A stretch of DNA of 64,000 nt from Minisyncoccota bacterium (GCA_041665625.1 JBAYIK010000001.1:196341-260340), one strand, 5' to 3'. Shown: positions 2,454 through 63,781, numbered from the stretch's first letter. The notes: generated by a model not told the origin, from the letters alone. Program-made: numbers and translations.

Positions 2454-2546
2454 ATGCTCAAACTATGTCAGGAATGAGGACAGAGAACTGTTCTCTACAA
2501 TTTGTGACTTAAGTTTTTTCTCGACACTTCACGGAAGGAGTGAACT

Positions 2547-4304: not shown

Positions 4305-4324
4305 TCACAAAACGCGTTCGTTCG

Positions 4325-4354
4325 AAGGGGGCCCTCATCGGGGGTCCCCTTTTC
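4325..4354 (+). terminator. intrinsic terminator
   Basis: GC-rich imperfect hairpin AAGGGGGCCC..GGGGGTCCCCTT followed by TTTT, immediately after the antiporter stop. Confidence 0.55.
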
Positions 4355-4433
4355 CTATCCCTGGGTTATGCACCATTATTCCCCAGAAGACTAGTTTGCA
4401 AGACTTGGCTTTTGAATTGGTCAATGTGATAGA

Positions 4434-4443
4434 ATAGACACAT
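4434..4443 (+). promoter_or_regulatory. extended -10 promoter element TGATAGAAT upstream of the dnaB leader
   Basis: TGn plus TAGAAT. The predicted TSS, near 4450, coincides with the first arm of the leader inverted repeat. Confidence 0.4.
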
Positions 4444-4488
4444 GGCCTCCCGTTAGAAGCCGCGATAATGGGTTGGAGGCAATATTTA

Positions 4489-4569
4489 ATGAATATGAAA
4501 AAAATATTATTAGTCTCAGTAGTCGGATTAATTATGAGCAATAATGCGAAGAGCATTATCTGCTTCTAA
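4489..4569 (+). CDS. 26-codon upstream ORF (hydrophobic peptide MNMKKILLVSVVGLIMSNNAKSIICF) in the dnaB leader
   Basis: GGAGG lies 9 nt upstream of the ATG. The ORF ends 2 nt before the probable dnaB ATG. Could be a leader peptide or a tiny membrane protein. Confidence 0.35.
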   Translation: MNMKKILLVSVVGLIMSNNAKSIICF

Positions 4570-8018: not shown

Positions 8019-8149
8019 TAATAAAACGAATTACTAATAATTTTCTAAAATAATAATTACTTAAACATTGACAAAGCACTAAAAGAATGCTAATAATTAG
8101 AGCGGAAACGCTCATACCGAGCGCTGATCCTAAGTTTGAACAGAAGGAG

Positions 8150-8518
8150 ATGATAACCGTGCCTCTGCAACAGCAATTTGTCAGGGAGGCCGCCGGCCTC
8201 ACCGACGACCAGATCGGGGCGGCCAACGAGAGCCTGCCCGAGAAAGTAGACGGGGAGGTGGTCCTCGCGGTCTTGGAAGGAGACCTCAGTCGTTTCGTGG
8301 CCCTTTCCCTCCACAAGGTCAACGCCATGGAAGATTGGTCCAAAGACCCCGCGATCAAGACCCCCGCACAGAAGGTTGCCTTCCAGAGGCAGACCGAAAT
8401 CCTGGCCCGTTGGGTCTGGGACGAGGTCGAGTATGCCTTCCCGGAGACCGCCAGGAAGGAAGGGCCTTACGCCCACAGCCTACGCCGCGGTTGGAAAGTC
8501 GTCCTCCCCTCGAAGTAA
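8150..8518 (+). CDS. hypothetical protein, member 1 of a GC-rich paralog family
   Basis: SD GAAGGAGA before the ATG at 8150 (track ORF from 8087). Shares 'GEVVLAVLEG...MEDWSKDP...LARWVWDEVEYAFPE' motifs with 11188, 25994 and 27862. GC-rich. Confidence 0.6.
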   Translation: MITVPLQQQFVREAAGLTDDQIGAANESLPEKVDGEVVLAVLEGDLSRFVALSLHKVNAMEDWSKDPAIKTPAQKVAFQRQTEILARWVWDEVEYAFPETARKEGPYAHSLRRGWKVVLPSK

Positions 8519-10380: not shown

Positions 10381-10665
10381 TTATTTGGCTTCGTCGTCAG
10401 AATTTTTCAAATCAGCCATCTGGATCGGACTCTGGATCTTGGGCGGAGTCATATCAATTGTTCCGAATTGCTTTTCATAATTAGCAATTTGATCGTTCAT
10501 CCATAAAGCAATGCTCTTCATAATTTGCGGAGTCGTGGCAAAAGAATCAAGGCTATTCCCTGAAGTTAGTGCAAAAGAAAACAAGTCTTTACCAAAGGCC
10601 CCCAGGGCCCCATCACAGAATTTCTTTGGTAGTTGATTAAAGTCTACTTGTTTGGGATCAATCAT
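10381..10665 (-). CDS. hypothetical small protein (possibly DUF3467-like)
   Basis: 94 aa; weak resemblance '...IANYEKQFGTI'. Confidence 0.45.
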   Translation of the reverse strand: MIDPKQVDFNQLPKKFCDGALGAFGKDLFSFALTSGNSLDSFATTPQIMKSIALWMNDQIANYEKQFGTIDMTPPKIQSPIQMADLKNSDDEAK

Positions 10666-11123: not shown

Positions 11124-11187
11124 GCCTATATTATATCATATAAATAACGACGCCGATTCAAGAAAAAGGTGACAAGAACCCCTAAAT

Positions 11188-11652
11188 ATGGCAGTAATTG
11201 AGCTGGAGAAGTTAACCCAACGTGCCCCAACTAAAGAGGAGAACCGAATGTTCACCGACAACACCCTTGACGAGGTAGGAGAGATCAGAAAAGTCTTTCT
11301 TGCCGTTGCCGAGGAAAAACTTCCCGACAGCCCCCCAGACGGTTTTACCGTCCTGGGTAACATCGAGGACGCGAGGCTCCGAAGACTCTGGCTTCTCATG
11401 AAGTCCAAGGCCCAGCAAATGGAGAACTGGGTCAAACCCGACAGCGGGCAAAGAGGCTTCTCCGTCACGAGTGGAGAAATCTCCAAGCTCGATAAGGAGC
11501 TGGTCTTTATCCGCCAGTTGTTCTGGCTCGAGCTACAGATGCTCTTCCCGCAGCTCGACAGAATCATCCTGTGTCCATCCGCAATGATCAAAGGCTGGCA
11601 AGTCGCGATCAAATACCCCGAACGCGACCCAGTCGATGAACTGGCGACCTAA
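11188..11652 (+). CDS. hypothetical protein, member 2 of the GC-rich paralog family
   Basis: Motifs 'GFTVLGNIED...QQMENWVKPD...FIRQLFWLELQMLFPQ' parallel 8150..8518. GC-rich. Confidence 0.6.
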   Translation: MAVIELEKLTQRAPTKEENRMFTDNTLDEVGEIRKVFLAVAEEKLPDSPPDGFTVLGNIEDARLRRLWLLMKSKAQQMENWVKPDSGQRGFSVTSGEISKLDKELVFIRQLFWLELQMLFPQLDRIILCPSAMIKGWQVAIKYPERDPVDELAT

Positions 11653-11668
11653 CCCCGGCCCACTGGCC

Positions 11669-11709
11669 ATATAGCCGTTGCCCCACCCTGGGGCCACGGC
11701 TATGTTTTT
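11669..11709 (+). terminator. intrinsic terminator (first of a tandem pair)
   Basis: ATAGCCGT-TG-CCCCACCCTGGGG-CC-ACGGCTAT then GTTTTTAT. Confidence 0.65.
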
Positions 11710-11720
11710 ATAAAAGCAGA

Positions 11721-11748
11721 AAACCGCAGGCGGGGCCTGCGGTCTTTT
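11721..11748. terminator. intrinsic terminator (second of the pair, bidirectional shape)
   Basis: ACCGCAGGC-GGG-GCCTGCGGT, flanked by AAAA on one side and CTTTT on the other. Confidence 0.6.
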
Positions 11749-11990
11749 AAGACAAGCGCGGGGGGTTGAAGGACTCAACCTCGTTCATCTCAAGAGCGAG
11801 ATAGGCGAAGCGAGCCTTGAGTGCCCAGAGAGCCTCTTCAGATAAAGTCTGAGCCGGGAAAATGGAAAGAAAGTTCCGCTTCGCGATCAAACCGTTCTGC
11901 GCCCCAGTCAGACGACGACTCGTGGGGAAGATCCCCGTATCGTCATACCAGACGATCTCATGCGGTGTAGCCTGAATCGTCTGTGGTCCT
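11747..11990 (-). pseudogene. about 80-codon open frame with no canonical start, possible gene remnant
   Basis: The minus-strand frame '...TPHEIVWYDDTGIFPTSRRLTGAQNGLIAKRNFLSIFPAQTLSEEALWALKARFAYLALEMNEVESFNPPRLS*' follows an AAGGAGG SD but has no in-frame ATG/GTG/TTG (only ATT). It lies in a GC-rich segment. Confidence 0.25.
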
Positions 11991-12057
11991 CCTTCTCTTG
12001 TTTGTGAGCAAGCCTAAGTTAATTAGACTCTCTTAAATCTTGATGTCAATTATTTAT

Positions 12058-12456
12058 CTAGAAGACAATCTTGCTCGCGATAAAATAAGTTATGACGGAG
12101 ACAGAGGCAGCCAAGACCGCACCCCAGGCCAAATCAACAATTGTTACCAAGAGGGGCCAATCTTTAGTGAGCGCCAAATTAGTAAGATCATAAGTGGCAT
12201 AAGTGATAAGTCCGAAGAGTGCTCCCAAAAGTAATGCCGAGAGCCACGACCCCTTTTCCACCGCCGGGGTGATGACAAAAATAACTAAGCCAACAATGAA
12301 TAAGAGATAAAAGATAATTGCCGCCGCCCAATTGACGTTACTCTTCATTAAGAAGCCAATCTGAGCCCGATAGAAATCCTTGGCGACAAGCCCAACCCAG
12401 AGCATGTCGAGAGCAAAGAAAACTGGTAGAGCAATAGCATAAAGTTTTATAAACAT
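12058..12456 (-). CDS. DUF2177-like membrane protein
   Basis: 132 aa with 4 TM helices. Leaderless-type TATAAT lies 7 nt before the ATG. Confidence 0.55.
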   Translation of the reverse strand: MFIKLYAIALPVFFALDMLWVGLVAKDFYRAQIGFLMKSNVNWAAAIIFYLLFIVGLVIFVITPAVEKGSWLSALLLGALFGLITYATYDLTNLALTKDWPLLVTIVDLAWGAVLAASVSVITYFIASKIVF

Positions 12457-12502
12457 ATTTATATTATACTCCCCCGTTTAGCCAGCGCCAATGAGATATC
12501 AA

Positions 12503-12533
12503 CATCCCAACAAACTCCAGTTTGTAAGGGTGT
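12503..12533. repeat. copy 1 of a 34-bp conserved element (CATCCCAACAAACTCCAGTTTGTAAGGRTGT)
   Basis: Contains the inverted repeat ACAAACT-CC-AGTTTGT. It lies about 45-75 bp upstream of the -10 of gene 12058..12456. Confidence 0.7.
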
Positions 12534-12554
12534 CATATAAAAAAATAAAAAAGC

Positions 12555-12860
12555 TTAAGATAACGAGCGGAAAGTCTTTAAAAAATCAACAAAAATTTTG
12601 CCATAAGGAGAGAGCTCATGCAAAACAAATTTGCCTTGATACTTCTTGTTAACCAAGCCGGCGACATTGAGTCGTCTCGTATGCTCCCCGATCGTCTTCT
12701 CGTTGGCCTTAATCAATTCAATAATCTCCTCGAGTGTAATCCGCGGGTGGGCAGCAATAGCCAGAAGAATCTCGATGCGATAGTGATTGGCCAAACCCTT
12801 CAGATGTCGCTCCATCTGTTTGGAAGTTTTGAACTTATTCATGTCAATATTATACACCAA
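12555..12860 (-). CDS. ArsR/SmtB-family HTH transcriptional regulator
   Basis: 'HLKGLANHYRIEILLAIAAHPRITLEEI...GEHTRRLNVAGLV' is a winged-HTH ArsR signature. The track start is TTG. An ATG at 12843 lies 6 nt after a TATAAT box, giving a leaderless transcript. Confidence 0.7.
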   Translation of the reverse strand: MVYNIDMNKFKTSKQMERHLKGLANHYRIEILLAIAAHPRITLEEIIELIKANEKTIGEHTRRLNVAGLVNKKYQGKFVLHELSPYGKIFVDFLKTFRSLS

Positions 12861-12872
12861 AGCTGTTTCTTC

Positions 12873-12906
12873 TCATACCAACAAACTCCAGTTTGTAAGG
12901 ATGTTT
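12873..12906. repeat. copy 2 of the 34-bp element, overlapping the -35 region of the ArsR-like gene promoter
   Basis: TCATACCAACAAACTCCAGTTTGTAAGGATGTTT. Its position is what an autoregulatory operator would occupy. Confidence 0.7.
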
Positions 12907-12915
12907 AAAATTTGG

Positions 12916-13419
12916 TTATTTATAGATGGCGATGAGTTGGCGGAGGATGAGTGATTGAGGGGTGATCTCGTGGCCAGAGAAATCAAACCAAACTCGCAAG
13001 AAATCTTCTCGTTTAATTTTTCTTTCTCCGCCAAGCTCCGGATCTTGAAGATAGATATAATCGTCATCCAGACCCGACACCACTGAGTAATGACCGTCGG
13101 GCACCTCCGAATCATCATAATCTTGTCGCCCCCGAGTGAACCAATTCACAATGACCGGTGTCCCCTTCTCGAGCCACTCCTCAATCTCCGCAAAACTGCT
13201 CTCAGTCTTAATCTCCGCCCTGAAGCCAAGAGACTCTGCCGCCCGGACGATATCTTTGTCGCTAACGCCAAGATCAGAGACCAGACCCGTCAGCTCGGCC
13301 AATTCTTTCTCCGTCTTCTCAACTCCATAATAATCCAAGACAATCTTAAGCGAAGCCGGCCCGCACATCCCCGCATGCAAGGTTTCTTGAAAAGGTTTAA
13401 TGGCTAGATGTTTGTTCAT
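12916..13419 (-). CDS. C39-like (Peptidase_C39_2) cysteine-peptidase domain protein
   Basis: 'HAGMCGPASLKIVLDYYG' (Cys), '...DGHYSVVSGLDD' (His), 167 aa. GGGG SD supplied by the upstream repeat element. Confidence 0.6.
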   Translation of the reverse strand: MNKHLAIKPFQETLHAGMCGPASLKIVLDYYGVEKTEKELAELTGLVSDLGVSDKDIVRAAESLGFRAEIKTESSFAEIEEWLEKGTPVIVNWFTRGRQDYDDSEVPDGHYSVVSGLDDDYIYLQDPELGGERKIKREDFLRVWFDFSGHEITPQSLILRQLIAIYK

Positions 13420-13472
13420 TTTTTTCCCCGAAGTCGTATCTCGCGTAGCCAGATCCGACTTCTTAGCTTAAC
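13420..13472. repeat. short copy of the intergenic element 'CCCCGAAGTCGTA..(loop)..ATCCGACTTCTTAGCTTAA'
   Basis: 7-bp inverted repeat GAAGTCG/CGACTTC. The minus-strand orientation gives 'GGGGAAAAAAATG' providing SD and start for 12916..13419. Related copies at 15121 and 16423. Confidence 0.6.
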
Positions 13473-13864
13473 ATTTTATAATATTCGGGATAACTTTTCT
13501 TAATAAAATTCTTCCAACAAGCTGTCTCATTACCATGACCTAAATCTTTTTTCCCATAGACAAGAAGGACTCTTACAACCCCCTTGTCTTTATGAAGAGC
13601 GACAATGCACCGATTGCCAGAACCGTGTCTTGACTCTTGAGTTCCGGAAATTTTAAATTCTGTCTTACAAATAACGATATCTGCATCTTTATCTGTTATC
13701 GGCTCAGCAATACTCTTCAAAAATAGGGCGTCAATCTTCTCAAATTCCTCAGCGATAGTCCCAAGTGTAAAGTCCCAAGCTCCCTTATACTTCTTAGCAA
13801 AAGATTTTATAAAGTGCCTCTCCGCAAAAGGCTCGAAGATAACTCTATACTTAGTAAACCTCAT
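13463..13864 (-). CDS. putative toxin partner of the Panacea-domain antitoxin (small protein, unknown family)
   Basis: About 134 aa from 'MRFTKYRVIFEPF...', overlapping the 3' end of the upstream HTH-Panacea gene by about 14 nt. The track ORF runs to 13912. Confidence 0.45.
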   Translation of the reverse strand: MRFTKYRVIFEPFAERHFIKSFAKKYKGAWDFTLGTIAEEFEKIDALFLKSIAEPITDKDADIVICKTEFKISGTQESRHGSGNRCIVALHKDKGVVRVLLVYGKKDLGHGNETACWKNFIKKSYPEYYKMLS

Positions 13865-14534
13865 GAGGATCTTCCTGTGTAATAAGAGCGTAAGAGACAA
13901 TTTCTTCATCATCAGCCATTAAATATGGCAGTTGGTTATGAGTAAAATTAACAATTTCGGCTGTTTTTTTATCTTTCCACTTTCTATGAATTTCTTTCAT
14001 TAAGTTTTCTTCCTCAGGCAAAATAGATTCTAACTTTTGTTTTTTATTACTATCTGACTCACTAATTATAATCATTTCTTTGCCATCAGCGTTCTTGCGG
14101 TCAACGATTATCTTTCCTTCTTCCTCAAGCTCATCAAGGGCTCGAAAATAAGAATCTGGAACTGGCCCATATTTAATTTTACGATACTGCATACCACTCA
14201 TGCTATTCAAATGACTATAAAACCAGGCAAAATCAGAGAGATAGACAAGTTTGGCCAATTTAGTCTTTTTAACACTTTTACCCAATCGGAGAAAAGACAG
14301 GATCATCTGCTTATATTTCTCGTAATTAGGAGACTCACCCTTCTCCATCTCTTCGAAAGGTATATTTAAAATGCCTGAGAGTTTTTCAAATTCACTCATA
14401 GACAGCTCTCTCTTCCCCTGTTCAATGGCAATATAAGAAGGACGAGAAAGACCCAATTTAGAGGCTAAGTCTAATTGGGAGAGACCTTTCTTAAGTCGAG
14501 AGGCTTTAATCAGCTTCGCGTACTTAGTAATCAT
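13851..14534 (-). CDS. HTH_XRE plus Panacea (DUF4065, SocA-like) domain protein, antitoxin-like
   Basis: 'LSQLDLASKLGLSRPSYIAIEQGKR' is Cro/C1 HTH. 'KLAKLVYLSDFAWFYSHLNSMSGMQYRKIKYGPVPD' is the Panacea signature. ATG at 14534 has a TATACT box 12 nt upstream (track ORF to 14696). Confidence 0.65.
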   Translation of the reverse strand: MITKYAKLIKASRLKKGLSQLDLASKLGLSRPSYIAIEQGKRELSMSEFEKLSGILNIPFEEMEKGESPNYEKYKQMILSFLRLGKSVKKTKLAKLVYLSDFAWFYSHLNSMSGMQYRKIKYGPVPDSYFRALDELEEEGKIIVDRKNADGKEMIIISESDSNKKQKLESILPEEENLMKEIHRKWKDKKTAEIVNFTHNQLPYLMADDEEIVSYALITQEDPHEVY

Positions 14535-14781
14535 ATACCAATAAGTATACATAAACGTGTAAATAATGCAAACATAGGTGTTGATAAGTTTGACATAAAA
14601 AATAAACGGAGTAAAATTTATAGAGGAGAGAGCCTTTTTGCGGAAATCCTCTCCCCTAAAACATAAATATCTTTTTTGCCCTTTGGGGTATTTCAACTAA
14701 ACTAATAAGTAAAAACTTTAACACTTTTATTTTACCAAATTTAGATTAATTAATAAACAAGGGTAACTAACCAAACATTCA

Positions 14782-14982
14782 ATGCCTTATTACACTCGTA
14801 ATACCGGCAAATCGTGGACACCAAAAGATGTGACGCAGTTAAAACAGCTCGTTCGTCAAAATACACCAACACGAGTCGCCGGATTCAAACTTGGCAGAAC
14901 TGAAGATGCGGTCAGAGCAGAGGCCAGTAAACTCTCCCTCAGCTTAAAGCCAACAAACCAGTCGCCGCACAATAGAAAGTAG
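14782..14982 (+). CDS. small putative DNA-binding (HTH-like) protein
   Basis: 66 aa. '...WTPKDVTQLKQLVRQNTPTRVAGFKLGRTEDAVRAEASKL' resembles sigma-70 region-4/terminase-small-subunit-like HTH. Its own terminator follows. Confidence 0.45.
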   Translation: MPYYTRNTGKSWTPKDVTQLKQLVRQNTPTRVAGFKLGRTEDAVRAEASKLSLSLKPTNQSPHNRK

Positions 14983-14996
14983 ACCTTAAATTTGAA

Positions 14997-15037
14997 AAGA
15001 AAGAACGAGACCGCAACTCGTTCTTTCTATTTTTTTA
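14997..15037 (+). terminator. intrinsic terminator
   Basis: AAGAACGAG-ACCGCAA-CTCGTTCTT then TCTATTTTTTTAT. Confidence 0.7.
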
Positions 15038-15068
15038 TCTATAATTTATGAGACTAACCTCAGTCTCC

Positions 15069-15102
15069 TCATCCCAACAAACTCCAGTTTGTAAAGATGT
15101 TT
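15069..15102. repeat. copy 3 of the 34-bp element
   Basis: TCATCCCAACAAACTCCAGTTTGTAAAGATGTTT. Confidence 0.7.
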
Positions 15103-15120
15103 AGGCGTTTTTCTTTCTTC

Positions 15121-15140
15121 TCCCCTTTTCCCCGAAGTGA
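15121..15140. repeat. partial copy of the 'CCCCTTTTCCCCGAAGT' element
   Basis: Matches the 5' part of the elements at 13420 and 16423. Confidence 0.45.
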
Positions 15141-15202
15141 GTTTTAGTTGTTATGACACATTTTACCCTTGAGACGAGGCCTGACCTCGTTTCTCTAATA
15201 AA

Positions 15203-16342
15203 TTAATCTGCTATATCAATATCAGGGATATCTCCATAATACTGGAGTGCCCGAAGTATTGCCGGAAAAAGGGTGGAATCAGATACCGGATGCATGACAA
15301 AAGGAGGGAGAGCTTGCAAGTTCTGTCCAGAAGAAGCCTTCTCGTCAGCCTGGTAATGAAAAGAGAAATTAGTGAAATACAACGCATTCCAAGCAGAAGG
15401 ATTTTCTTTTGTAACATTTTTGGAATGAGAGGCATTTTTAAAGATATTTTTCACCCACGGTATCTTTTTAAAATCCCCTGATTCTTCATGTGGTACATTT
15501 ATATCAACAAAGACAAGAAAAGGCATCTTGCCACACTCTGTTTTTTTAAAGGCCTGGTTAAGGAGACGTTGGATACCTCCGCCATTAATTTTGGACCCAT
15601 TAACATCTCCTGGGGTATGAAGGATTCCAGGCCTGTGCCTACTTTTAGCTTCGACGGCGATTTCTACTCCTGACTCTTGATGTGTGGCAATAAATTCACA
15701 ATGTGGCTCTGAATGGTCTTCTTCATCTAGCCATCTTATATTAAAACCTAATCGCGCAATGATTGCAGCAATCATAATTTCGTATCTTGCCCCTTGATAT
15801 TCTAACGGCGTTTTAAGACGACCAAGAAGAAAGTCAGGTATTCTAGAAACATGTCTTAGTGTTGAAATATCAAAAGCAAGAGAAATTAAAGATTTAGTCC
15901 ACCCGTTTGGAGGAGCCTCTAATACGCCAGGGGTTTTATAATTAGGTTTAGCCAAGAGTTCTTTTTTCCATTCATCAAATTTCAAAAAACATTTCACAAT
16001 AAAATGTTGATCTTCCCACAACAGAGACTGTTGCTCATTAATCCATTCGAAACTCAAAGTATCTTTAAGAATAAATTGAATAAAATCATGAAAGGTCTCA
16101 TCAGAATTTTCGCTAAGATATACTTGATTACCAATTGCCCAGACTTTTTTCCCTTTGTGAATTACCGGGTTAACATAATTAATATAAATCCCTTTTTGCT
16201 TAAGAAGATTTTCTTTTTCTCGTATTTTTTTAAAATGTAAGAGTACTTCCATGGGAACAGGTGAGTTATCTTCATCCATATGACATTTTTTATATTTCTT
16301 ACCACTTCCACAGTGGCAAAGCTGGTTTCTTCCTAATTTCAT
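15203..16342 (-). CDS. SEC-C metal-binding motif protein with possible PD-(D/E)xK nuclease-like core
   Basis: N-terminal 'CHCGSGKKYKKCH' (SEC-C). The central 'EPHCEFIATHQESGVEIAVEAKSRH' resembles an E..ExK restriction-endonuclease-like signature. No other recognised domain. Confidence 0.55.
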   Translation of the reverse strand: MKLGRNQLCHCGSGKKYKKCHMDEDNSPVPMEVLLHFKKIREKENLLKQKGIYINYVNPVIHKGKKVWAIGNQVYLSENSDETFHDFIQFILKDTLSFEWINEQQSLLWEDQHFIVKCFLKFDEWKKELLAKPNYKTPGVLEAPPNGWTKSLISLAFDISTLRHVSRIPDFLLGRLKTPLEYQGARYEIMIAAIIARLGFNIRWLDEEDHSEPHCEFIATHQESGVEIAVEAKSRHRPGILHTPGDVNGSKINGGGIQRLLNQAFKKTECGKMPFLVFVDINVPHEESGDFKKIPWVKNIFKNASHSKNVTKENPSAWNALYFTNFSFHYQADEKASSGQNLQALPPFVMHPVSDSTLFPAILRALQYYGDIPDIDIAD

Positions 16343-16422
16343 AATAATTTATTTTTTAATCATGTCCTCACAACACACCACGTTGTTCAACAGAATTGAA
16401 TCAATGGGAACGACCCCATTAA

Positions 16423-16541
16423 TCCCCTTTTCCCCGAAGTCGTACTTCAAGCGCTTGCCCTGCGCCGTGCCGGCCATAGCTTTAGCGAAGACTAGAAGCT
16501 TCGGTGAAGTAGGGAGCTCGAAATCCGACTTCTTAGCTTAA
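16423..16541. repeat. long copy of the intergenic element (same ends as 13420..13472, with an extra internal segment of about 75 nt)
   Basis: 'CCCCTTTTCCCCGAAGTCGTA' ... 'ATCCGACTTCTTAGCTTAA'. Lies between the methyltransferase and SEC-C genes. Confidence 0.6.
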
Positions 16542-17812
16542 GAAACAAAATCCAAGAGAGACTTTCCAAGCCTCTCAATAACTCCAACGACCAGAGCATT
16601 ACCCATAATAAAGGCTCTTTTTGTGTCTGGGGTAACTTTTCCATTTAACATAAATTTTGTGTGGTCAGAAGGAAACATGTTTAACTTCTCCAACTCAAGT
16701 GGGGTAAGCCGGCGAAGCCTGCCAGATTTAGTCTTAATGACGTGTTTAAAGCGCGAGGGAGAACTTCCACCTTCCCCCGTCACAATTGTTCTGGATGGCT
16801 TATCAAGAGAATCAGGAAAAGCCATTGGGCCTTCTGAGTAATCATATTCAAACCCATCTTTTGATTTCCGCCCCTCTTTCTTTCCACCTTTTAAATATTC
16901 CCATCTTTTTTGATCAGCCTTTTTTATAAAAAATTCTTCTGGAATTTTTGCTTCGTCGTGAATAATAATATTTTTAAGTAAAATAGACTTACCATTATAA
17001 TTAGGCACAGATTTTACTGAGTAGACTTTTCTATCAATCATAACTCCGGAAACATCAAAAGGGCTTTTAGTTGGTTTATTTGAAGAAAAATTCTTAGATA
17101 TTTCCTCCAGACTTCCCTCAATTCTAAATTCGCCCAATTTACCTTCACCTTTTTTCACAGGGAAAGCTTTAGCAATTACTCCATCTTTGTAAATCCAATT
17201 TTCAAGATTTTTTTCTTTTTTAATAGCATTAAAAATCTTACTGCCTTTTTTATACCCCATAATAAAAACTCTTCTCCTTCTTTGCGGCATCCCGTAATCG
17301 GCCGCATTTACAACCCTCCATTCAACTGCATAACCAAGATAAGAAAGAGAGGTCAGCATAACAGCAAAATCTCGACCTCTCTGTCCTGAAGGGGATTTTA
17401 ATAATCTATCGACATTCTCTAACATTAAAAAGTTCGGGGAATTTTTTCCTTTTTTATTTAAGATATTATAAATAGACCACCATAAAACACCTTTCTTACC
17501 ATAGATACCCTTAGCCTGGTTCGCTGTTCTCGCAACAGAATAATCCTGACAAGGAAATCCCCCGACAAGTAAATCATGGTCAGGTATTTCTTTAAATTTA
17601 TTTTCAACGACATCTTGGATATCTTCACAAGAATGTCCCTCTTCTCCAAATATGTTTATATAAATCTGAGAAGCATGTTGTGTAGCTGCCCCTGGTTCCC
17701 ATTGGCTATTCCATACTGTCTCATATTTTAAGTCTTTTTTACTTGCAGCATCAAGGCCAAGGCGGAAGCCCCCAACACCGGCAAAAAGCTCAAGGACTCT
17801 TATTTTCTTCAT
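16538..17812 (-). CDS. DNA (cytosine-5)-methyltransferase
   Basis: Motif I 'LFAGVGGFRLGL', motif IV 'GGFPCQDYS', motif VI 'ENVDRLL'. Adjacent to a Sau3AI-like endonuclease. Confidence 0.85.
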   Translation of the reverse strand: MKKIRVLELFAGVGGFRLGLDAASKKDLKYETVWNSQWEPGAATQHASQIYINIFGEEGHSCEDIQDVVENKFKEIPDHDLLVGGFPCQDYSVARTANQAKGIYGKKGVLWWSIYNILNKKGKNSPNFLMLENVDRLLKSPSGQRGRDFAVMLTSLSYLGYAVEWRVVNAADYGMPQRRRRVFIMGYKKGSKIFNAIKKEKNLENWIYKDGVIAKAFPVKKGEGKLGEFRIEGSLEEISKNFSSNKPTKSPFDVSGVMIDRKVYSVKSVPNYNGKSILLKNIIIHDEAKIPEEFFIKKADQKRWEYLKGGKKEGRKSKDGFEYDYSEGPMAFPDSLDKPSRTIVTGEGGSSPSRFKHVIKTKSGRLRRLTPLELEKLNMFPSDHTKFMLNGKVTPDTKRAFIMGNALVVGVIERLGKSLLDFVS

Positions 17813-17843
17813 AAAGAGATTCTAACAGATAGCGTCAAAAAGA

Positions 17844-19247
17844 TCAATATTGATCTTTTTGGTTTTCTATGGCCTGCTGTATATACTTAGCATTTAACCA
17901 AAAACACCGTTTCATTTCCTGTGTTTTTTGGGGAGTTTCAATGGTATCTGTACTGTCTTTCCCGTGAGGTCGAACGTGGGCAACAGGACTTTCCTTCATT
18001 TTTGGCAAATCTTCGTACCGACCATCCTTAATACAATCAACTGTTTTTTGCCAGACCTTTTCTACCTCACCAATGTCTTTCATCGGAAAATTCCAGAAGA
18101 AGGTTTTCTTCAATATTATATTTTTACTCCTCTTTTCCTTTTGAAAAACGACAAATAAAAACTTCTTTGTCTCCAGCTGTAAATGAAACTCGGCCATAGT
18201 TTCGTCTTCTTCGTCAAACCACAAATCATTTACTAAACTTTTGTAGTCGAATGCAGGAAAAGAAATAGATTCTCTTAGTGTCCCGGTGTGTTCAAGAGTA
18301 ATGACTCTAAGTGTAATGTTGGCCTTCTCTAATTCCTCTACATTATTTGATTCAACGTCTAATATCCTGTTAACAATTAATCTTTTGTAACTCTTTGATT
18401 TTTTGCCGAGACTTGAATTTAACTTAGCTAGTATCTCCGTGTCTGTTTTGCCAATAAATTGGCTAAATTTTTCTTTAACAACATCTTCAATTGTTTCAAT
18501 TCTCCGGTGTTTCTTAAAGATTGAGTCAGTATTTGTTTTTTCTCCAAGCAGTTTAGTCTGAATAAGGTAATTGATATATTGCTGTTTAAAAGAAAAGGCT
18601 CTCGGTTTCGCAGCGATGCGCCCCATCGGCTGATCCCTAACAACTCGGCTATTAGCCGCTTTAGTGCAAGCTCCCAGATAATAAGTATCTCCCTCAGAGA
18701 GCAAGTGGGCTTCCCCTCGTTTAATCTTATTTACTATATATTCCCAGTCTTTTTTAATCTGAAAAACATCTTCGTCGGAAATATCCTCAAGGAGCTTCAG
18801 CAAATGGACAAACTTGAACTCATAATCAAGGATACTTTGACTTTCAATCCAAAGATAGAACATCAGTAGTAAAGTTTTATTCTTTTTTAGGAAAGAGCTT
18901 TGTTCCCAGGTCTCACCGACAACGGTATCATAATTAATCATTGAAAAGACGAGACGCTCCTTAGAGGAGAGCTTACCGGTGTTGTGTTTTTTTAGAGGAG
19001 TAGTCTTCAGCTCAACACTCGCAACAGTAAAATCTGGTTCACTTATATTACCTGGATTGATTTCGAAAAAATATTTTTCCATTAAATCACCCAAAAAACC
19101 TTTGCGTTTCAATCCGTACCCACCAATTTGTTCTTCAATTGCCCCGAGACTTCCAGAAGGGATGACTTGGCGCAAAGACTTTTGCAAAATAGTCTTTGCT
19201 TTCTCTAAAACCTGTTCTTTTGTGTTATATGTTTGAGACATGTTCAA
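17844..19247 (-). CDS. Sau3AI/MutH-family type II restriction endonuclease (GATC-type predicted)
   Basis: 'EPDFTVASVELKTTPLKKHNTGKLSSKERLVFSMINYD', 'EAHLLSEGDTYYLGACTKAANSRVVRDQPMGRIAAKPRAFSFK' and C-terminal 'HVRPH...FWLN' parallel the MutH/Sau3AI catalytic and duplicated domains as I recall them. Confidence 0.7.
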   Translation of the reverse strand: MNMSQTYNTKEQVLEKAKTILQKSLRQVIPSGSLGAIEEQIGGYGLKRKGFLGDLMEKYFFEINPGNISEPDFTVASVELKTTPLKKHNTGKLSSKERLVFSMINYDTVVGETWEQSSFLKKNKTLLLMFYLWIESQSILDYEFKFVHLLKLLEDISDEDVFQIKKDWEYIVNKIKRGEAHLLSEGDTYYLGACTKAANSRVVRDQPMGRIAAKPRAFSFKQQYINYLIQTKLLGEKTNTDSIFKKHRRIETIEDVVKEKFSQFIGKTDTEILAKLNSSLGKKSKSYKRLIVNRILDVESNNVEELEKANITLRVITLEHTGTLRESISFPAFDYKSLVNDLWFDEEDETMAEFHLQLETKKFLFVVFQKEKRSKNIILKKTFFWNFPMKDIGEVEKVWQKTVDCIKDGRYEDLPKMKESPVAHVRPHGKDSTDTIETPQKTQEMKRCFWLNAKYIQQAIENQKDQY

Positions 19248-19900
19248 ATATTAGAAATAAAACTTGCCGACAAAGTTTTAGAAACCACAACATGATCAAC
19301 GACTTTAATGTCTAAGATTTTCCCCGCACTGATTAGCTTCTTAGTAACCTCGATGTCATCAGCGGAGGGTTCAAGGTCGCCAGAGGGATGATTATGAGAA
19401 ATTATAATTGAAGAGGCGTTATTTTTAATGGCTCCCTCAAAGACTTCTCGAGGATGAACAAGGCTTTCATTAAGAGTGCCAATTGAAATAATATCTCTTT
19501 GTATTTCTTGGTTACGGCTATCCAGGTAAAAAACAACAAAGTGCTCCTTTTTGCTTCCCCTTATGTCCTCCATCCTCTCCCAGACATCTTTTGGGGAAAG
19601 TAATATAGAGGATTTCTTGTCTTTCAACATCCTTTTGCCAAGCTCAAAACAGGCCATAATTTCACAAGCTTTTGCCGAACCTAGGCCATGGATAGTTTTT
19701 AATTCATCAATACTTATATCAACAAATTTTTCGTTTTCAAATTTCTGTAAGATTTTTTGAGCTAGTTTTAGCACATTCAAATCTTTTGTACCAGTACGAA
19801 GCAAAATCGCCAGCAATTCGACGTCAGATAATTTGCCCGGACCATACTTTTCCATCTTCTCTCTTGGTCTATCAACACGGGGTAAATCCTTAATTTTCAT
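19244..19900 (-). CDS. radC: RadC-like JAB/MPN domain protein
   Basis: 'HNHPSGDLEPSADDIEVTKKL' is the JAMM motif. HhH-like N-terminus. Confidence 0.8.
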   Translation of the reverse strand: MKIKDLPRVDRPREKMEKYGPGKLSDVELLAILLRTGTKDLNVLKLAQKILQKFENEKFVDISIDELKTIHGLGSAKACEIMACFELGKRMLKDKKSSILLSPKDVWERMEDIRGSKKEHFVVFYLDSRNQEIQRDIISIGTLNESLVHPREVFEGAIKNNASSIIISHNHPSGDLEPSADDIEVTKKLISAGKILDIKVVDHVVVSKTLSASFISNI

Positions 19901-19996
19901 AATTTATTTTCCTATTCTACCACATTTCTCGCCTTTTTACGATAAACCAAAACACCCCCGAAGGGAAGGGTGTTTTGAGTAAGTACCTAGAATTAT

Positions 19997-20293
19997 CTAG
20001 ATTACCTTCCAGAGAAATTTACGATAAGCGGGAGAGAGGTCCGCCCAAGATTTAAAGGCTTTATATTGAGCAATGGATTGTTGAGAATTTTTTGAATCAA
20101 TCGTCTCAATCTCAATAACGACTTCAGCATTCCCATTCCGTACGTAAACATCAGGAATATAGCCATTAATAACTGGCGGTTTATTGTTTCCGGGCAAATC
20201 CGAATAAACAACAGGCCAACCAGCACGAACATATTGAGAAGCAATATTTGCCACTTCAGTATCGTGGATAACTTGATTTTCTTTTGGTCTCAT
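19997..20293 (-). CDS. hypothetical small protein (weak PD-(D/E)xK-like 'IPDVYV...EVVIEIE')
   Basis: 98 aa with a flanking hairpin terminator at 19945-19975. Function unknown. Confidence 0.4.
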   Translation of the reverse strand: MRPKENQVIHDTEVANIASQYVRAGWPVVYSDLPGNNKPPVINGYIPDVYVRNGNAEVVIEIETIDSKNSQQSIAQYKAFKSWADLSPAYRKFLWKVI

Positions 20294-20334
20294 TAGGTTT
20301 ATAATTAGTTTGTTATTTAGGTTCTTCCGACCTT

Positions 20335-20380
20335 TAATAAAAACAGCGAGACCGAAGGGGCTCGCTGTTTTTATTTTATT
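20335..20380. terminator. bidirectional-shaped intrinsic terminator
   Basis: ACAGCGAG-ACCGAAGGGG-CTCGCTGT flanked by an A-run and TTTTTATTTT. Confidence 0.6.
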
Positions 20381-20581
20381 AAAATTTAGTTTTTGAACTT
20401 ATAGCGTGATCGAAAGCAATAGGGTGGGCTTTTTACGTAAAAAATAACGCTTAGAGTCACCTTCGATAATTCTTTGATAAATTGTAGAAGAACTTATGGA
20501 TCCATTATAAAAACAACGATAAATAGCCCCTTTTGGGGACAAAATGTTCATAAAAAGGGACTATCCCAACAAATATTGAAT

Positions 20582-21427
20582 CTAAACCGGGCAGGTATTC
20601 TTACCCAACGCCGTATACAGGCCACACCAACTGAAAATCGCTTCGAAGAGGCAGAAGCCGGAGAAGAAGAGGATTAGCGGATTCCAAGTGGTGAGGATGG
20701 CGAAGAAGAAGAGGGCGACCGCTAGGGCCAAACGAATTAGCCGATCTCTCTTGCCAATATTTTGGGAGCGACCTCGGACCGAGCGCTCGGCAAAGAATTT
20801 GGCCAAGGAGCGATAAGCGAAGCCGACAATGAAGGCGAGGGCAAACATTAACAAGATTAAGCCCCAACCGAAGGGTGAATAGATAAAATTGGCCGGTGAC
20901 TTACCAAAAAAGTCTCGCTTGAGTTGTGGCAAAACTTTATAAACATTCACCGTCTCAGCAAAAGAGAAACTCTCAATCTCGCCAACCGCCAAAGCATACT
21001 TACCTTTGTTCAGAGGACTAGTAACGATAACTTCATAATCCCCCGCCAGAGCTTGGGACTTATACTCTGGGCCGCGCCAATAATCATCATAGCCAAACTC
21101 TTCATGATACTTCTCCCAATTAGAATCTTGTCCGCCCAAGACGGCCAATTGTTCCCCAGCGCGGGAAACAGTCGCTGAGATATCTCGCGGAGGAAGCGCC
21201 CCTGTGCCCGTCTCTTGATATGGCAACAAAATATTAACATAGAGGGCAAAAGCTTTGTCTGAATGAATTTTATAAATCACCGGCTCCCCCGCCAGTTGCC
21301 CATAATAGGCCTTGGAGATCTCTGGTTCCGTCACGATAATTGGATTGCTGGTGGCGAGGCGGGGTTGATGAGCGAGGGCGAGGGTGGGTGTGAGGAGAAG
21401 AAGGAAGAGGAGGAGATATTTTTTCAT
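20582..21427 (-). CDS. hypothetical secreted/membrane protein
   Basis: Signal peptide 'MKKYLLLFLLLLTPTLALA' (start at 21427, track to 21460). C-terminal TM helices. Confidence 0.55.
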   Translation of the reverse strand: MKKYLLLFLLLLTPTLALAHQPRLATSNPIIVTEPEISKAYYGQLAGEPVIYKIHSDKAFALYVNILLPYQETGTGALPPRDISATVSRAGEQLAVLGGQDSNWEKYHEEFGYDDYWRGPEYKSQALAGDYEVIVTSPLNKGKYALAVGEIESFSFAETVNVYKVLPQLKRDFFGKSPANFIYSPFGWGLILLMFALAFIVGFAYRSLAKFFAERSVRGRSQNIGKRDRLIRLALAVALFFFAILTTWNPLILFFSGFCLFEAIFSWCGLYTALGKNTCPV

Positions 21428-21770: not shown

Positions 21771-22436
21771 TTAATAACTATTTTCTTCATCTTCTTCTCG
21801 ATTACGAAAGAAACGCTTTACCTCGGCCTCATAATCTTCTTTAAGCAACGGCAACAAACCCTTAACCTCGGGATGGCTATTATAAACTATTTGTTTGTTT
21901 TGAATTTGCCCACGGAAGAGAGTTGGGAAACTAAGACCGGTCTTACGCCAGACGGGCATCTTAGATAAAGTCTCAGCCAAGTCATCGGGGATAGCTAAAA
22001 CAGCGGGAATGGTCTCGCTCTCACCCAAACCCTTCATCAAGGCCACCCCGCCACGCAATGACCTTGGAGCAAAATGAGACGGAATAAAGACGCCATGACG
22101 AACAGGACCCAAGAGATAACCATCGCGGTTATTACCAAACATGAAGTTCCTCTCAGTCGAGCCTTCAGTAAAAAAGTGATAGAAAAAACTGCTTGAACCA
22201 AGAGCCTCGCGACCACGGCGAGTAATGGCCTTCTCATACCAGCCAAAAATCTCGTCGGCCTTCTCTTCGCCATAATGATAAAAGAATTCGGCTGTGTCGA
22301 TTAGGCCCAGTGGAATTTTCTCGTCTTCTTGAACAGAAAGAGGAACATCGAGGGCTTCTTCAACACCTTGATCAACTTCGTCTCGAAGTTCTTTATCATT
22401 CTTATCCTTATGCCAAAAGTTTTCTAAGGGTGACAT
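21771..22436 (-). CDS. hypothetical protein
   Basis: 221 aa, no recognised motif. Confidence 0.5.
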
Positions 22437-25460: not shown

Positions 25461-25526
25461 ATTTATTATTTTAACTTAATAATTATTAATAATGAAACTA
25501 AAAAATCCCGCGGTCTGCGGGATTTT

Positions 25527-25841
25527 CTACTTGCCGATTTTGGCAATGGAGACTTTAGTAAAGGGTTGTCGGTGCCCAGCCTTCTTGTGATGACGGACCT
25601 TGGCTTTATACTTAACAACGACGATCTTCTTGTTGCGGCCATCAGCCTCGAACTTGGCGGTAACTGTCGCCCCATCTAAGTAAGGGGTACCAAGCTGAAC
25701 TTTGTCACCATCAACAATGAGAAGCACTTTATCAAAAACAACCTCACCTTTGGCCTTAGCCTCGGCTAGTTTCTCGACTTGCAAAAGGTCGCCCTCGGCG
25801 ACTTTATACTGTTTTCCACCTGTTTCGATAATTGCGAACAT
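25527..25841 (-). CDS. rplU: 50S ribosomal protein L21
   Basis: '[18 protein letters not shown]...[16 protein letters not shown]'. Start at the internal Met (track to 25859). Confidence 0.9.
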
Positions 25842-25993
25842 AACCCTAGTATTATACACATGGGGCGGGAAAAATCAAGAGTTTGCCCCCTTAGGCCTTT
25901 GGGGATATAGTAAAAGAGGAATTGCAAATATAGTGATGTTCGCCGCAAATTGAAAAAAGGTCAAGAGGAGCCAAAACCAGAAGGAGAATACCC

Positions 25994-26662
25994 GTGGCAG
26001 ACCCCAAACAGAAAGAGAAAACCCCAAGGAGGCAGCTAAGTCCCGACTGTCGGGCAAAGGTCTCCAAAGCCTGGGCCCAATGCCTCGCCGACCCCGAAAC
26101 CCCAACCCCCTTTGCCCAAGGGACCCACGCTGTCTACAACGGGAGCACAATCCCCAACCTCATCATTGAGGGAATCAGGGGCCAGATGGAAGATGAGGGA
26201 AAGTTCTTCAAGCCCGAGGACGAGGTCAGCATTTTCTTCGAGATCAGCGGGGTAGTTCTTCCCCGACACCTGACAGTGACCGGAGGACTAGAGAGCTTCC
26301 TCATGGAGATCGAAGACCAGTTCTTGAACGGCTGGCCCTTCCAAGGTGAGAAGCCTGGTGCGAAGAGAACGCTCAGCGATATCGTTCGACTAAGGGTCAA
26401 GACCGCGATCAAGGAATCGGTGAGCAACGCCAACGTCGCGAGAGAAGACGTCGCGGGGATCTTGGCAACCGAGATCATGAGCAAGTACTACCTCGAAACC
26501 GAGGAGACCTCGGCTGAGCTCTTCGCCGTCTTCGACACGGTGATGGACAGTCTGGGTCAGAGAGGCCTCGAAGAATTCTTTGACAGCTTCGAATCCGAAG
26601 TCCTCAACCACCCCCTGCTGAAAGATGCTCCGCCCGAGCAACAGGAGATCCCCGAGACTTGA
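25994..26662 (+). CDS. hypothetical protein, member 3 of the GC-rich paralog family
   Basis: 'GVVLPRHLTVTGGLESFLMEIEDQFLNGWPFQGEKPG' parallels 'G.VVL...L...ME.W.KP' of the other members. GC-rich. Confidence 0.55.
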   Translation: MADPKQKEKTPRRQLSPDCRAKVSKAWAQCLADPETPTPFAQGTHAVYNGSTIPNLIIEGIRGQMEDEGKFFKPEDEVSIFFEISGVVLPRHLTVTGGLESFLMEIEDQFLNGWPFQGEKPGAKRTLSDIVRLRVKTAIKESVSNANVAREDVAGILATEIMSKYYLETEETSAELFAVFDTVMDSLGQRGLEEFFDSFESEVLNHPLLKDAPPEQQEIPET

Positions 26663-26678
26663 TCTCCCTCAATTTGCA

Positions 26679-26715
26679 AACGCCGCGGCTAACCCCCGCG
26701 GCGATTGTGTTTTAT
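26679..26715 (+). terminator. intrinsic terminator
   Basis: CGCCGCGG-CTAACCC-CCGCGGCG then ATTGTGTTTTAT. Confidence 0.65.
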
Positions 26716-26734
26716 ATAAAATACGAACAAAAAA

Positions 26735-27796
26735 TTAATCGTCTAAGCTTGGCTTTTCTATCAACTCCGGTTCAAAACCGGCCGAGGCACCCGTGACCCG
26801 CATTACGTCCTTGTCCACTTTCTTAAGCTCCTTATAGGCCAAATTATAGTGATTTACCGAGGTTCCCAGAGCATTCCCCAGCTTGGCCATATAGCCCTCA
26901 TAAGCCCCTATATGCTTGCCTAGCTCCTCGACCCTCTTACGTATCTCCTTGGCCGATTCTTCGATCTGGAGGGCTTTTAGGCCCTGTAGGACGGTCTGTA
27001 GATAGGCCAGGAAGCTCGTCGGGGAGACGATAATAACGTGATATTTAGAGGCGGCCCGCTGGATGAGATTCTCAGTATTCTCGTCCTGGAGGGCCCCAAT
27101 TTTGTTAATTAGAAGGTCATAATAAATGGCCTCGTGGGGGATGAACATGAAGGCAAACTCCATAGTCCCCTGGTCGGGCTGAACATATTTGGCCGTCTCG
27201 GTAATACGATTCTTGAGGTCATTCACAAAGACTTTCTCATACTTCTCTTTCTCAGTCTCATTCCTCTCCCCCACTATGCGATTATAATTTTCTAGAGAAA
27301 ACTTAGAGTCGATCGGGATTATTTTATCTTTGACAAAAACCACAGCATCAACAATGGTGCCATCAGAAAAAGGATATTGCATCTGATAAGAGCCCGGGGG
27401 CATAATATTCTTGAGCAAGGTCTCGAGATAATACTCCCCCACTATCCCGCGCTGTTTAGGATTTTTTAAAATATCTTGAAGTGATTGAAGTTGATCGGTG
27501 AAGTTAACAACTTGTTTATTGGTCTCTTCTAGCCTGACAAGTTTTTCTGTCACCTCTCGAGACAATCTAGAAAATTCATTAAACTGCGAGCGCACGTTCT
27601 CAGCGGACATTTTGTTAGTCTCGAGCAAACGACTGTCGATAGTTTTGGTAAGATTCTCAATCTGATTCTGCAAGAGCATCATCGCACTATTATCTTGAGG
27701 CTTAATTGTCTCCTTCTGTCCCAATAAACGCAAAGCAATAAAAGCCAGACTGAAGCCCGCGACGAGAGCAATAATGACAAAGATTATGGTGTTCAT
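26735..27796 (-). CDS. rmuC: DNA recombination protein RmuC
   Basis: N-terminal TM, long coiled coil, RmuC C-terminal domain. Confidence 0.8.
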   Translation of the reverse strand: MNTIIFVIIALVAGFSLAFIALRLLGQKETIKPQDNSAMMLLQNQIENLTKTIDSRLLETNKMSAENVRSQFNEFSRLSREVTEKLVRLEETNKQVVNFTDQLQSLQDILKNPKQRGIVGEYYLETLLKNIMPPGSYQMQYPFSDGTIVDAVVFVKDKIIPIDSKFSLENYNRIVGERNETEKEKYEKVFVNDLKNRITETAKYVQPDQGTMEFAFMFIPHEAIYYDLLINKIGALQDENTENLIQRAASKYHVIIVSPTSFLAYLQTVLQGLKALQIEESAKEIRKRVEELGKHIGAYEGYMAKLGNALGTSVNHYNLAYKELKKVDKDVMRVTGASAGFEPELIEKPSLDD

Positions 27797-32716: not shown

Positions 32717-32724
32717 TATATCTG

Positions 32725-62476: not shown

Positions 62477-63781
<1,305 letters not shown>

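Follow-up and report, generated by a model that had tools for sequence, protein, structure and literature searches.

A low-GC defence and addiction cluster of probable composite origin in a Paceibacteria chromosome, and a dispersed palindromic repeat at its gene ends

We describe a cluster of defence and addiction genes in a 64,000-nt stretch of a Minisyncoccota bacterium genome (GCA_041665625.1, JBAYIK010000001.1:196341-260340), further referred to as the window. The window is a part of a 293-kb metagenome contig (ENA ERZ27249449 k141_595606; the window position equals the contig position minus 196400). The cluster encodes a RadC protein, a Sau3AI-family restriction endonuclease (REase) and a C5 cytosine DNA methyltransferase (MTase), a PanA-type antitoxin with its candidate toxin, a SEC-C protein with a nuclease-like domain, and two small open reading frames (ORFs). 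It lies between a YgaP-like gene and genes for an ArsR-like regulator and a DUF2177 membrane protein. Copies of two families of short repeats, here called A and R, occur in it and beside it (Table 1). The remainder of the window is ordinary core chromosome, with CysRS, DnaB, RecR, the dcw/mur cluster, MreB, tRNA synthetases and enolase. We consider it rather likely that the segment at 13.46-20.4 kb is a composite defence/addiction cluster of separately acquired modules, placed in a variable hotspot of this Paceibacteria (Candidate Phyla Radiation, CPR) chromosome.

A first-pass annotation, made from the sequence alone, had described an accessory island of about 9 kb at 11150-20400. The compositionally foreign part is shorter, about 13.46-20.4/20.58 kb, or approximately 7 kb. 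Island genes have a GC content of 0.356-0.391, with the exception of the 66-aa ORF (0.47), and the spacer that continues the low-GC block to 20.58 kb has 0.32. The corresponding values are 0.435 for the window, 0.49 for the C39-like peptidase gene and 0.50 for the YgaP-like gene. The genes named in that annotation are all present, apart from reservations about a paralog and one label that are given below, and the ascription of defence and addiction functions to the region, with its restriction-modification (RM), toxin-antitoxin (TA) and nuclease-like genes, is supported.

Table 1. Features of the cluster and its borders (window coordinates unless a locus is named; a dot marks features without a strand).
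Feature	Position	Strand	Remarks
Repeat A1	12503-12533	.	ACAAAC-TCCA-GTTTGT core; 47-77 nt upstream of the DUF2177 ATG
Repeat A2	12874-12904	.	directly upstream of the ArsR promoter; ArsR TATAAT ends 6 nt before the ATG
Repeat A3	15070-15100	.	inside the low-GC block; on the minus strand, a degenerate -10 box and a terminator come after it
Repeat R1, canonical	13420-13471 (core 13430-13462)	-	33-nt hairpin GAAGTCGGATCTGGCTACGCGAGATACGACTTC; right flank GGGGAAAAAA before the C39 ATG
Repeat R2, partial/degenerate	15115-15202	-	right arm and flank (ACTTCGGGGAAAAGGGGA) kept alone; abuts the SEC-C stop codon
Repeat R3, diverged	16420-16541	-	arms 16436-16447 and 16521-16532; 73-nt GC-rich centre
DUF2177 membrane protein	12058-12456	-	157 bits
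ArsR/MarR-like winged-helix regulator	12555-12842 (longest ORF to 12860)	-	just under Pfam cut-offs; start 12842 inferred from N-termini of orthologues
C39-like cysteine peptidase	12916-13419	-	between A2 and R1
Toxin, RelE/ParE-superfamily fold	13463-13864	-	start at the Met conserved among homologues; 13909 in the source annotation
HTH_3 + SocA_Panacea (PanA-type) antitoxin	13851-14552	-	overlaps the toxin start by 14 nt
66-aa ORF	14782-14982	+	weak PHROG regulator match
Perfect-stem hairpin between convergent gene ends	14995-15031	.	likely bidirectional terminator
SEC-C protein with C-terminal PD-(D/E)xK-like nuclease domain	15203-16342	-	
C5 cytosine DNA methyltransferase (Dcm-type)	16538-17812	-	PF00145 full-length, 208.7 bits; PADLOC MTase_II, 535 bits
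Sau3AI-family type II REase	17844-19241	-	NCBIfam NF040973, 434.6 bits (cut-off 300); 465 aa
Full-length RadC (HhH-type N-terminal domain and JAB)	19244-19900	-	NCBIfam equivalog
AHJR-like small PD-(D/E)xK ORF	19997-20293	-	
Hairpin with 18-nt arms, AT-rich right border	20336-20375	.	likely terminator
YgaP-like gene, right flank	20582-21427		low-GC block stops before it
RadC-REase-MTase module	16538-19900		L072 5708-10836; L074 5608-10698; L075 7349-10701

The RadC, REase and MTase genes form a compact unit: the RadC stop codon lies 2 nt before the REase ATG, and the MTase gene begins 31 nt downstream of the REase gene. In addition to its family-model score above the curated cut-off and the adjacent cognate MTase, the REase was aligned to Sau3AI (PDB 4pxg) with E 4e-58, and the catalytic D-x6-E-x-K motif is kept as PDFTVASVELK. 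GATC sites would be protected by the methylase and, where unmodified, would be cut by the endonuclease. GATC is depleted, with an observed-to-expected ratio of 0.78 in the window, and 8 occurrences against 18.6 expected in the block. The role of RadC is probably nucleic-acid processing, and it may belong functionally to a CPR-wide Sau3AI-type RM module as its third component.

This module recurs in unrelated surroundings. The REase shares 71-85% identity with more than 100 CPR protein clusters, whereas the best YgaP match is 56% identical. In the three other genomes whose gene context was read (loci numbered here L072, L074 and L075), the REase gene has RadC before it and the MTase after it, with protein identities of 78-85%, 81-83% and 70-82%, respectively, and with unrelated flanks throughout; in two of the three, an OLD-family ATPase/TOPRIM gene stands between RadC and the REase. 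A weak relative of the AHJR-like ORF lies upstream of RadC in L074. Nucleotide homology to these loci is limited to window positions 19912-16546, approximately from the RadC start to the MTase stop codon. The GC content of the module is 4-10 points under that of its flanks in every genome compared, and its protein identity (about 80%) is far above that of neighboring core genes (about 50-60%).

The second module is an operon of a PanA-type antitoxin and a small toxin candidate. The Panacea domain (PF13274) scores 45.4 bits against a cut-off of 25.7, and the partner has a RelE/ParE-superfamily fold. The pair is conserved in two other loci: with the identical 14-nt overlap beside type I RM, GmrSD and Fic genes in L045, and beside the RadC-OLD-Sau3AI-Dcm genes in L072. 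We infer that the two proteins constitute a type II TA pair, in which PanA should bind and neutralize the toxin and its helix-turn-helix (HTH) domain should repress the operon; such a pair would serve addiction or abortive infection. The toxin family has a typical length of about 132 aa and 65-77% identity across more than 800 clusters, and the members bearing a name are all from CPR/Patescibacteria. No model for it was found in Pfam, NCBIfam, PADLOC or PHROG.

The third module is the SEC-C gene. Residues E216, E231 and K233 of its nuclease-like domain are invariant, and the SEC-C zinc motif is present. A homologue with 61% identity was found in L078 (1-8161), at the margin of a prophage-like region that contains a serine recombinase, a terminase and ImmA/HTH genes. 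Carriage of the cluster by phages was considered and rejected: IMG/VR gave nothing for the R pattern, for the REase or for the toxin family, and the sole match was a relative of the SEC-C protein with 28% identity on one contig (L079 6001-7014).

Both repeat families had been noticed in the first-pass annotation, and both exceed chance: shuffled sequences gave no matches for A, and for the second family, R, which was analyzed as B..C, they never gave as many matches of B and C as observed. All three R copies of the window sit in the island, each after the stop codon of a module gene: toxin (R1), SEC-C (R2) and MTase (R3). The toxin and MTase stop codons fall within the conserved left flank of R, TTAAGCTAA. 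Within the window, the restriction of R to the island fits either import along with foreign DNA or a preference of R for DNA of that kind. At the L045 locus, three R copies lie between cassettes of a defence island, one of them 61 nt after the toxin gene; the core and flank of R are 100% identical over 40 nt there, compared with 75% identity of the adjoining genes. Neither the R3 centre nor the remaining spacers of the island show similarity to any fetched locus.

JGI metagenomes were scanned for both R arms, and 22 loci (L050-L071) were found. Together with the window and L045 this yields 26 distinct R copies, and the 33-nt core is identical in most of them, at more than 20 loci. About two thirds of the copies are situated inside long ORFs with the frame kept. 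The host genes encode PolA, UvrB, GatB, dihydroorotate dehydrogenase (DHODH), TsaD, enolase, Dus, Fmt, HolB, 2-hydroxyacid dehydrogenase and Xer-like recombinases. Three different frames run through the core (KSDLATRDTTS, EVVSRVARSDF and RSRISRSQIRL), in both orientations, and a variant, GGCTGCGCG, removes the sole stop codon of the frame in use. Inserts of 14-30 aa are present in enolase (L068 2078-3400), Fmt (L070 4669-5664) and HolB (L059 50-574), and the window orthologues of these genes are empty sites (62486-63781, 57925-58767 and 49080-49787, respectively). R thus combines the features of an element similar to the Rickettsia palindromic elements (RPE): many unrelated genes as well as intergenic sites, both orientations, an open frame and insert-free orthologues. 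Two related DHODH genes carry R at the same site in opposite orientations, flanks included (L052 4238-4270 and L053 4773-4805), and both ORFs are open; these could have arisen by a flip of the hairpin or by independent insertions. In 9 of the 26 copies, variable flanks add 5 bp or more to the hairpin, compared with 10% of mismatched control pairs.

Simpler identities for R were considered. The hairpin is stable (z-score about -4 to -5; about -4.8 for the R1 fold), but the sequence after it is G-rich rather than T-rich, and a terminator was rejected. An adapter or assembly artefact was rejected as well: R occurs in ENA, JGI and Logan assemblies and in both orientations, the ORFs that contain it are open, and the variant mentioned above drops an in-frame stop codon. 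A permissive Rfam scan of positions 13300-16650 gave matches at chance level alone, none of them on R or A. The GTAG/CGTC tag was not found at the hairpin ends, with CTAC present in the loop alone, and a full-text literature search returned no description of an R-like element in Patescibacteria. We propose, with about even confidence, that Paceibacteria-type CPR have in R (GAAGTCGGATCTGGCTACGCGAGATACGACTTC) a mobile palindromic element, as yet undescribed, which spreads to gene ends and, in-frame, into essential genes; in R-poor genomes such as the present one its copies would mark the seams of acquired defence cassettes and could supply short homology for exchange without an island-encoded recombinase.

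Two further observations concern R. An independent Logan assembly of the same organism (contig L044 from SRR18595301, window positions 11594-13443) ends inside R1 at 13443; the break may be due to the repeat, to a population variant of the hairpin or to low coverage. In L055 (positions 1-1978; RmuC 92% identical at the amino acid level), orthologues of the gene at 10381 and of ribosomal protein L21/RmuC lie next to each other, separated by an R copy; the window counterparts (10381-10665 and 25530-27796) are 15 kb apart. R may mark rearrangement breakpoints.

The motif of the other family, A, is CATCCCAACAAACTCCAGTTTGTAAGGGTGT; its copies start at 12503, 12874 and 15070 and are local within the 64 kb. 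The orthologous regulator in L011 (68% identity, within the range of 68-74% for ArsR orthologues in L011 and L058) is flanked by two perfect 30-nt palindromes of A sequence, CATACCnACAAAC-N4-GTTTGTnGGTATG, at 11650-11680 and 11990-12020, each followed by TATAAT and an ATG. An A-like site is also found upstream of ArsR in L058 (4091-4119). Most simply, A is read as the predicted operator of the ArsR-like regulator, which would probably control ArsR itself and the neighboring DUF2177/TspO-type genes. A3 is 94% identical to A2 over 36 nt; with a degenerate -10 box and a terminator after it, it has the look of a relic of a duplication or insertion. The order A3, R2 mirrors A2...R1, which suggests that a part of the block entered with a duplication of host sequence beside ArsR. 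The direct repeats A2/A3 and R1/R3 are internal and do not lie at both outer ends; the repeats do not mark the ends of an island.

For the analysis of synteny, 34 loci encoding a YgaP-like protein (42-56% amino acid identity, full-length matches) were taken from GTDB genomes, mostly of Patescibacteria. YgaP lies beside TspO, DUF2177, ArsR, YgjP or MliC in L004, L005, L007, L009, L011, L013, L015, L023 and L026. DUF2177 and ArsR belong to a YgaP/TspO/DUF2177/ArsR neighborhood conserved in L004, L007, L011, L013 and L015. As they are kept beside YgaP in these relatives, we consider them conserved neighbors rather than cargo. None of the REase, MTase, SEC-C, PanA, toxin, C39 and AHJR genes is encoded within 10 kb of YgaP in the 34 loci. 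The C39 gene has no homologue in the locus of any relative examined, and its status as cargo or host gene is uncertain. The proposal of a single accessory island is upheld in its atypical composition and its absence from the equivalent neighborhood of every relative examined; it fails as one unit, since DUF2177/ArsR are conserved and the rest consists of at least three separately recurring modules.

The same junction holds other cargo in a relative. In L058 (YbjQ 92% identical at the amino acid level), an AlwI-type REase fragment, AIPR, an R copy and an NYN gene are found beside YbjQ-ArsR-NTase-MliC, and no cargo gene of the window's block is present. The NYN gene is bracketed by duplicated host DNA, namely 102 nt of the 5' part of YbjQ (95% identity) and the 29-nt A-like site (100%), at L058 positions 2630-2773 and 3750-4119, and has the appearance of an insertion accompanied by a long duplication of the target. 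Sequence comparison thus presents the YbjQ/YgaP|ArsR junction as a putative variable defence hotspot with cargo differing between relatives. The absence of integrases and transposases, which had made mobilization of the island seem puzzling, agrees with our data: no such domain was found in window genes with precomputed Pfam matches or in ten further ORFs that were scanned. Patescibacteria are known to have genomic islands with RM systems, defence genes enriched among transferred genes, and competence genes (PMC12455944). Given these reports and the variable cargo of the hotspot, a dedicated recombinase of its own is not required for the block.

We favor a composite origin. The hotspot between the conserved YbjQ/YgaP and ArsR/DUF2177/TspO genes would take up cargo, and three modules would have been acquired independently: RadC/REase/MTase, PanA with its toxin, and a SEC-C/PD-(D/E)xK nuclease-like gene of the prophage-edge kind. 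They probably entered by DNA uptake and recombination among Patescibacteria with no island-encoded recombinase. The copies of A would be a by-product, an ArsR-locus site duplicated when DNA was inserted alongside. R would be a short selfish palindromic element lodging after gene ends, which may give short homology for the shuffling of cassettes.

Among the alternatives, an integrative island, or two in tandem, inserted site-specifically at A upstream of ArsR is unlikely. The recombinase, of the tyrosine or serine type, would then be elsewhere or lost, and the A copies would be remnants of attL and attR attachment (att) sites. A is palindromic like recombinase core sites, the direct repeats A2 and A3 (31-36 nt, 94%) bracket the segment C39-R1-toxin-PanA-66-aa ORF, and an A-like site is duplicated around the inserted NYN gene in L058. 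However, an A pair flanks the ArsR orthologue in the island-free L011, the placing of A at promoter distance from ArsR and DUF2177 fits an operator, the modules recur separately elsewhere without A, and the L058 duplication takes in YbjQ coding sequence, which points to a long target duplication rather than an att core. An 11-nt piece of A at the right edge (20563) might be taken for an att remnant, but it is at chance level and has a twin at 7555. As for the usual hallmarks of integrative islands, the block has the atypical composition and the absence from relatives; it has no insertion in a tRNA or tmRNA and no outer att repeats, and no recombinase was found among the window genes looked up or scanned. 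The single tRNA of the window is tRNA-Glu at 32724, which is also the only Rfam match at gathering thresholds over the whole window; no tRNA lies within 12 kb of the region, as the first-pass annotation had held for its two ends. It is somewhat less probable still that the genes are ancestral residents of atypical composition, as AT-rich nuclease and methylase genes often have low GC. RadC is of the full-length 'housekeeping' type, both the RM trio and the toxin family occur very frequently in CPR and are well conserved there, and the arrangement is identical in all assemblies of the organism. Nevertheless, each of the four genomes examined has different flanks around the trio, the identity and GC content of the trio depart from those of its neighbors in the manner described above, and L058 carries different cargo at this junction.

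Descent from a degraded prophage or conjugative element is very improbable. The MTase, the HTH domain of PanA, the JAB domain of RadC and the 66-aa ORF have PHROG matches, and the SEC-C homologue stands at a prophage edge, but structural, replication, terminase and transfer genes are lacking, and IMG/VR contains neither close relatives of the REase and the toxin nor the R pattern. The least probable reading is an integron-like cassette array without an integrase (CALIN), with R as attC at the 3' ends of cassettes. It is suggested by the position of R after the toxin, SEC-C and MTase stop codons, by conserved arms around a centre of variable length (9, 16 and 73 nt), and by the single-gene cassettes that R copies divide in the L045 defence island. 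It is largely refuted by the R ends, which have no RYYYAAC/GTTRRRY boxes, by the lack of an IntI-like gene in the window, and by the two thirds of R copies that lie within housekeeping ORFs in either orientation, unlike attC sites.

Several points weigh against a composite cluster of separately acquired modules. The strong conservation of the RadC-REase-MTase trio could partly result from selection, not transfer. The direct repeats A2/A3 (31 nt, 94%) and R1/R3 (19 and 17 nt exact) bracket sub-segments and leave room for site-specific insertion by an enzyme acting in trans; the recombinase search covered 64 kb of the 293-kb contig. An empty site at strain level was not found: all assemblies holding the identical C39 protein keep the same neighbors, and exact-protein look-ups of C39, YbjQ and DUF2177 returned the same arrangement or short contigs alone, with no match for YgaP. 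Hence the recent gain is deduced from composition and distant synteny alone. The informative relatives are distant (YgaP 47-56% amino acid identity) or known only from short contigs.

The remaining observations concern the surroundings of the cluster and details of its genes. The first-pass annotation had reported leaderless-type promoters, and TATAAT/TAGAAT boxes ending 6-7 nt before the ATG are indeed present at DUF2177, ArsR, MliC, TspO and MTase. Its tiny HTH protein corresponds to the 66-aa ORF; the ORF is there, but the HTH identity is not established by the weak regulator match in PHROG. The 'GC-rich paralog' at 11188-11652 is doubtful, as the paralogy goes back to a weak match to the ORF at 8072-8515 (24% identity, E 0.007 in the window's own ORF set). 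On the minus strand at approximately 11770-12000, a GC-rich frame (0.52), open over about 77 codons, was seen after GGAGGA; it has no ATG, GTG or TTG start (possibly ATT) and is missing from both the ORF list and the source annotation. Part of this frame (31 nt, 11825-11855) matches positions 21948-21978, within the gene at 21771-22436, with 74% identity. Other GC outliers in the window are found at 2500-4500 (0.55-0.57, Na+/H+ exchanger/TrkA_N gene) and near 26 kb (about 0.54, 25500-27000).

The cluster resembles defence islands or hotspots that have no recombinase of their own, and the RM genomic islands of Patescibacteria (PMC12455944), in its clustered RM, TA and nuclease genes, atypical GC content, variable cargo and lack of an integrase or tRNA. 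It differs in that the block is only about 7 kb long, and in that its junctions carry a host operator-like palindrome and copies of a dispersed palindromic element. The island is one more case of a known picture, in which ultra-small CPR bacteria trade RM and TA modules that are parked in hotspots, and R is the unusual by-product of an otherwise ordinary island.

The restriction genes agree with the Sau3AI system (R.Sau3AI, PDB 4PXG; MutH-related) in the family match of the REase, its two-domain length of 465 aa, the D-x6-E-x-K motif and the adjacent C5-MTase. Unlike in that system, RadC precedes the REase in all four CPR genomes examined, and in two of them an OLD-family ATPase/TOPRIM gene stands between. 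The occurrence of the RadC-Sau3AI-Dcm trio across CPR classes at about 80% identity provides a testable context for the long-obscure RadC. The PanA operon follows the PanAT organization (Panacea/DUF4065; PMC8832971), where the gene of a small toxin is preceded and overlapped by that of an HTH and Panacea antitoxin. That study has documented PanA proteins that carry an HTH domain at the N-terminus, as well as partner toxins of the MqsR and ParE types, and the partner found here is of the RelE/ParE/MqsR superfamily, a class reported among PanA partners. It departs from the known pairs in that its partner family has no model in the four collections named above; this abundant PanA-partnered family with the RelE fold is a lead for further work.

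Insertion with a long target duplication has been described for mobile RM units in Helicobacter and other genomes. Here, too, duplicated host segments (A3/A2 in the window; 102 nt of YbjQ and 29 nt of A in L058) bracket transposase-less defence genes, whereas the duplication in the window is short and interrupted by the C39 gene. R shares with REP/REPIN sequences, which are served by RAYT transposases (PMC3733652), the form of a short GC-rich imperfect palindrome often situated just past gene ends. It differs in having no terminal GTAG/CGTC tag and in its many intragenic copies within ORFs; no RAYT was identified, though no systematic search for one was made.

The closest parallels are RPE and the miniature transposable elements with inverted repeats (MITEs) of Coxiella, which insert in-frame in genes (PMC10969869, PMC5896051). 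Like them, R is a short palindrome found in intergenic positions and in-frame in housekeeping genes in either orientation, gives short hydrophilic inserts and varies in presence among orthologues. Unlike RPE, it has a core of 33 nt rather than about 100-150 nt, resides in Patescibacteria, and keeps the core identical despite diverged flanks. We know of no mobilizing enzyme for either RPE or R. Should R prove mobile, it would add to the Rickettsia case of 'selfish DNA in protein-coding genes' a second and independent one, this time in strongly streamlined genomes.

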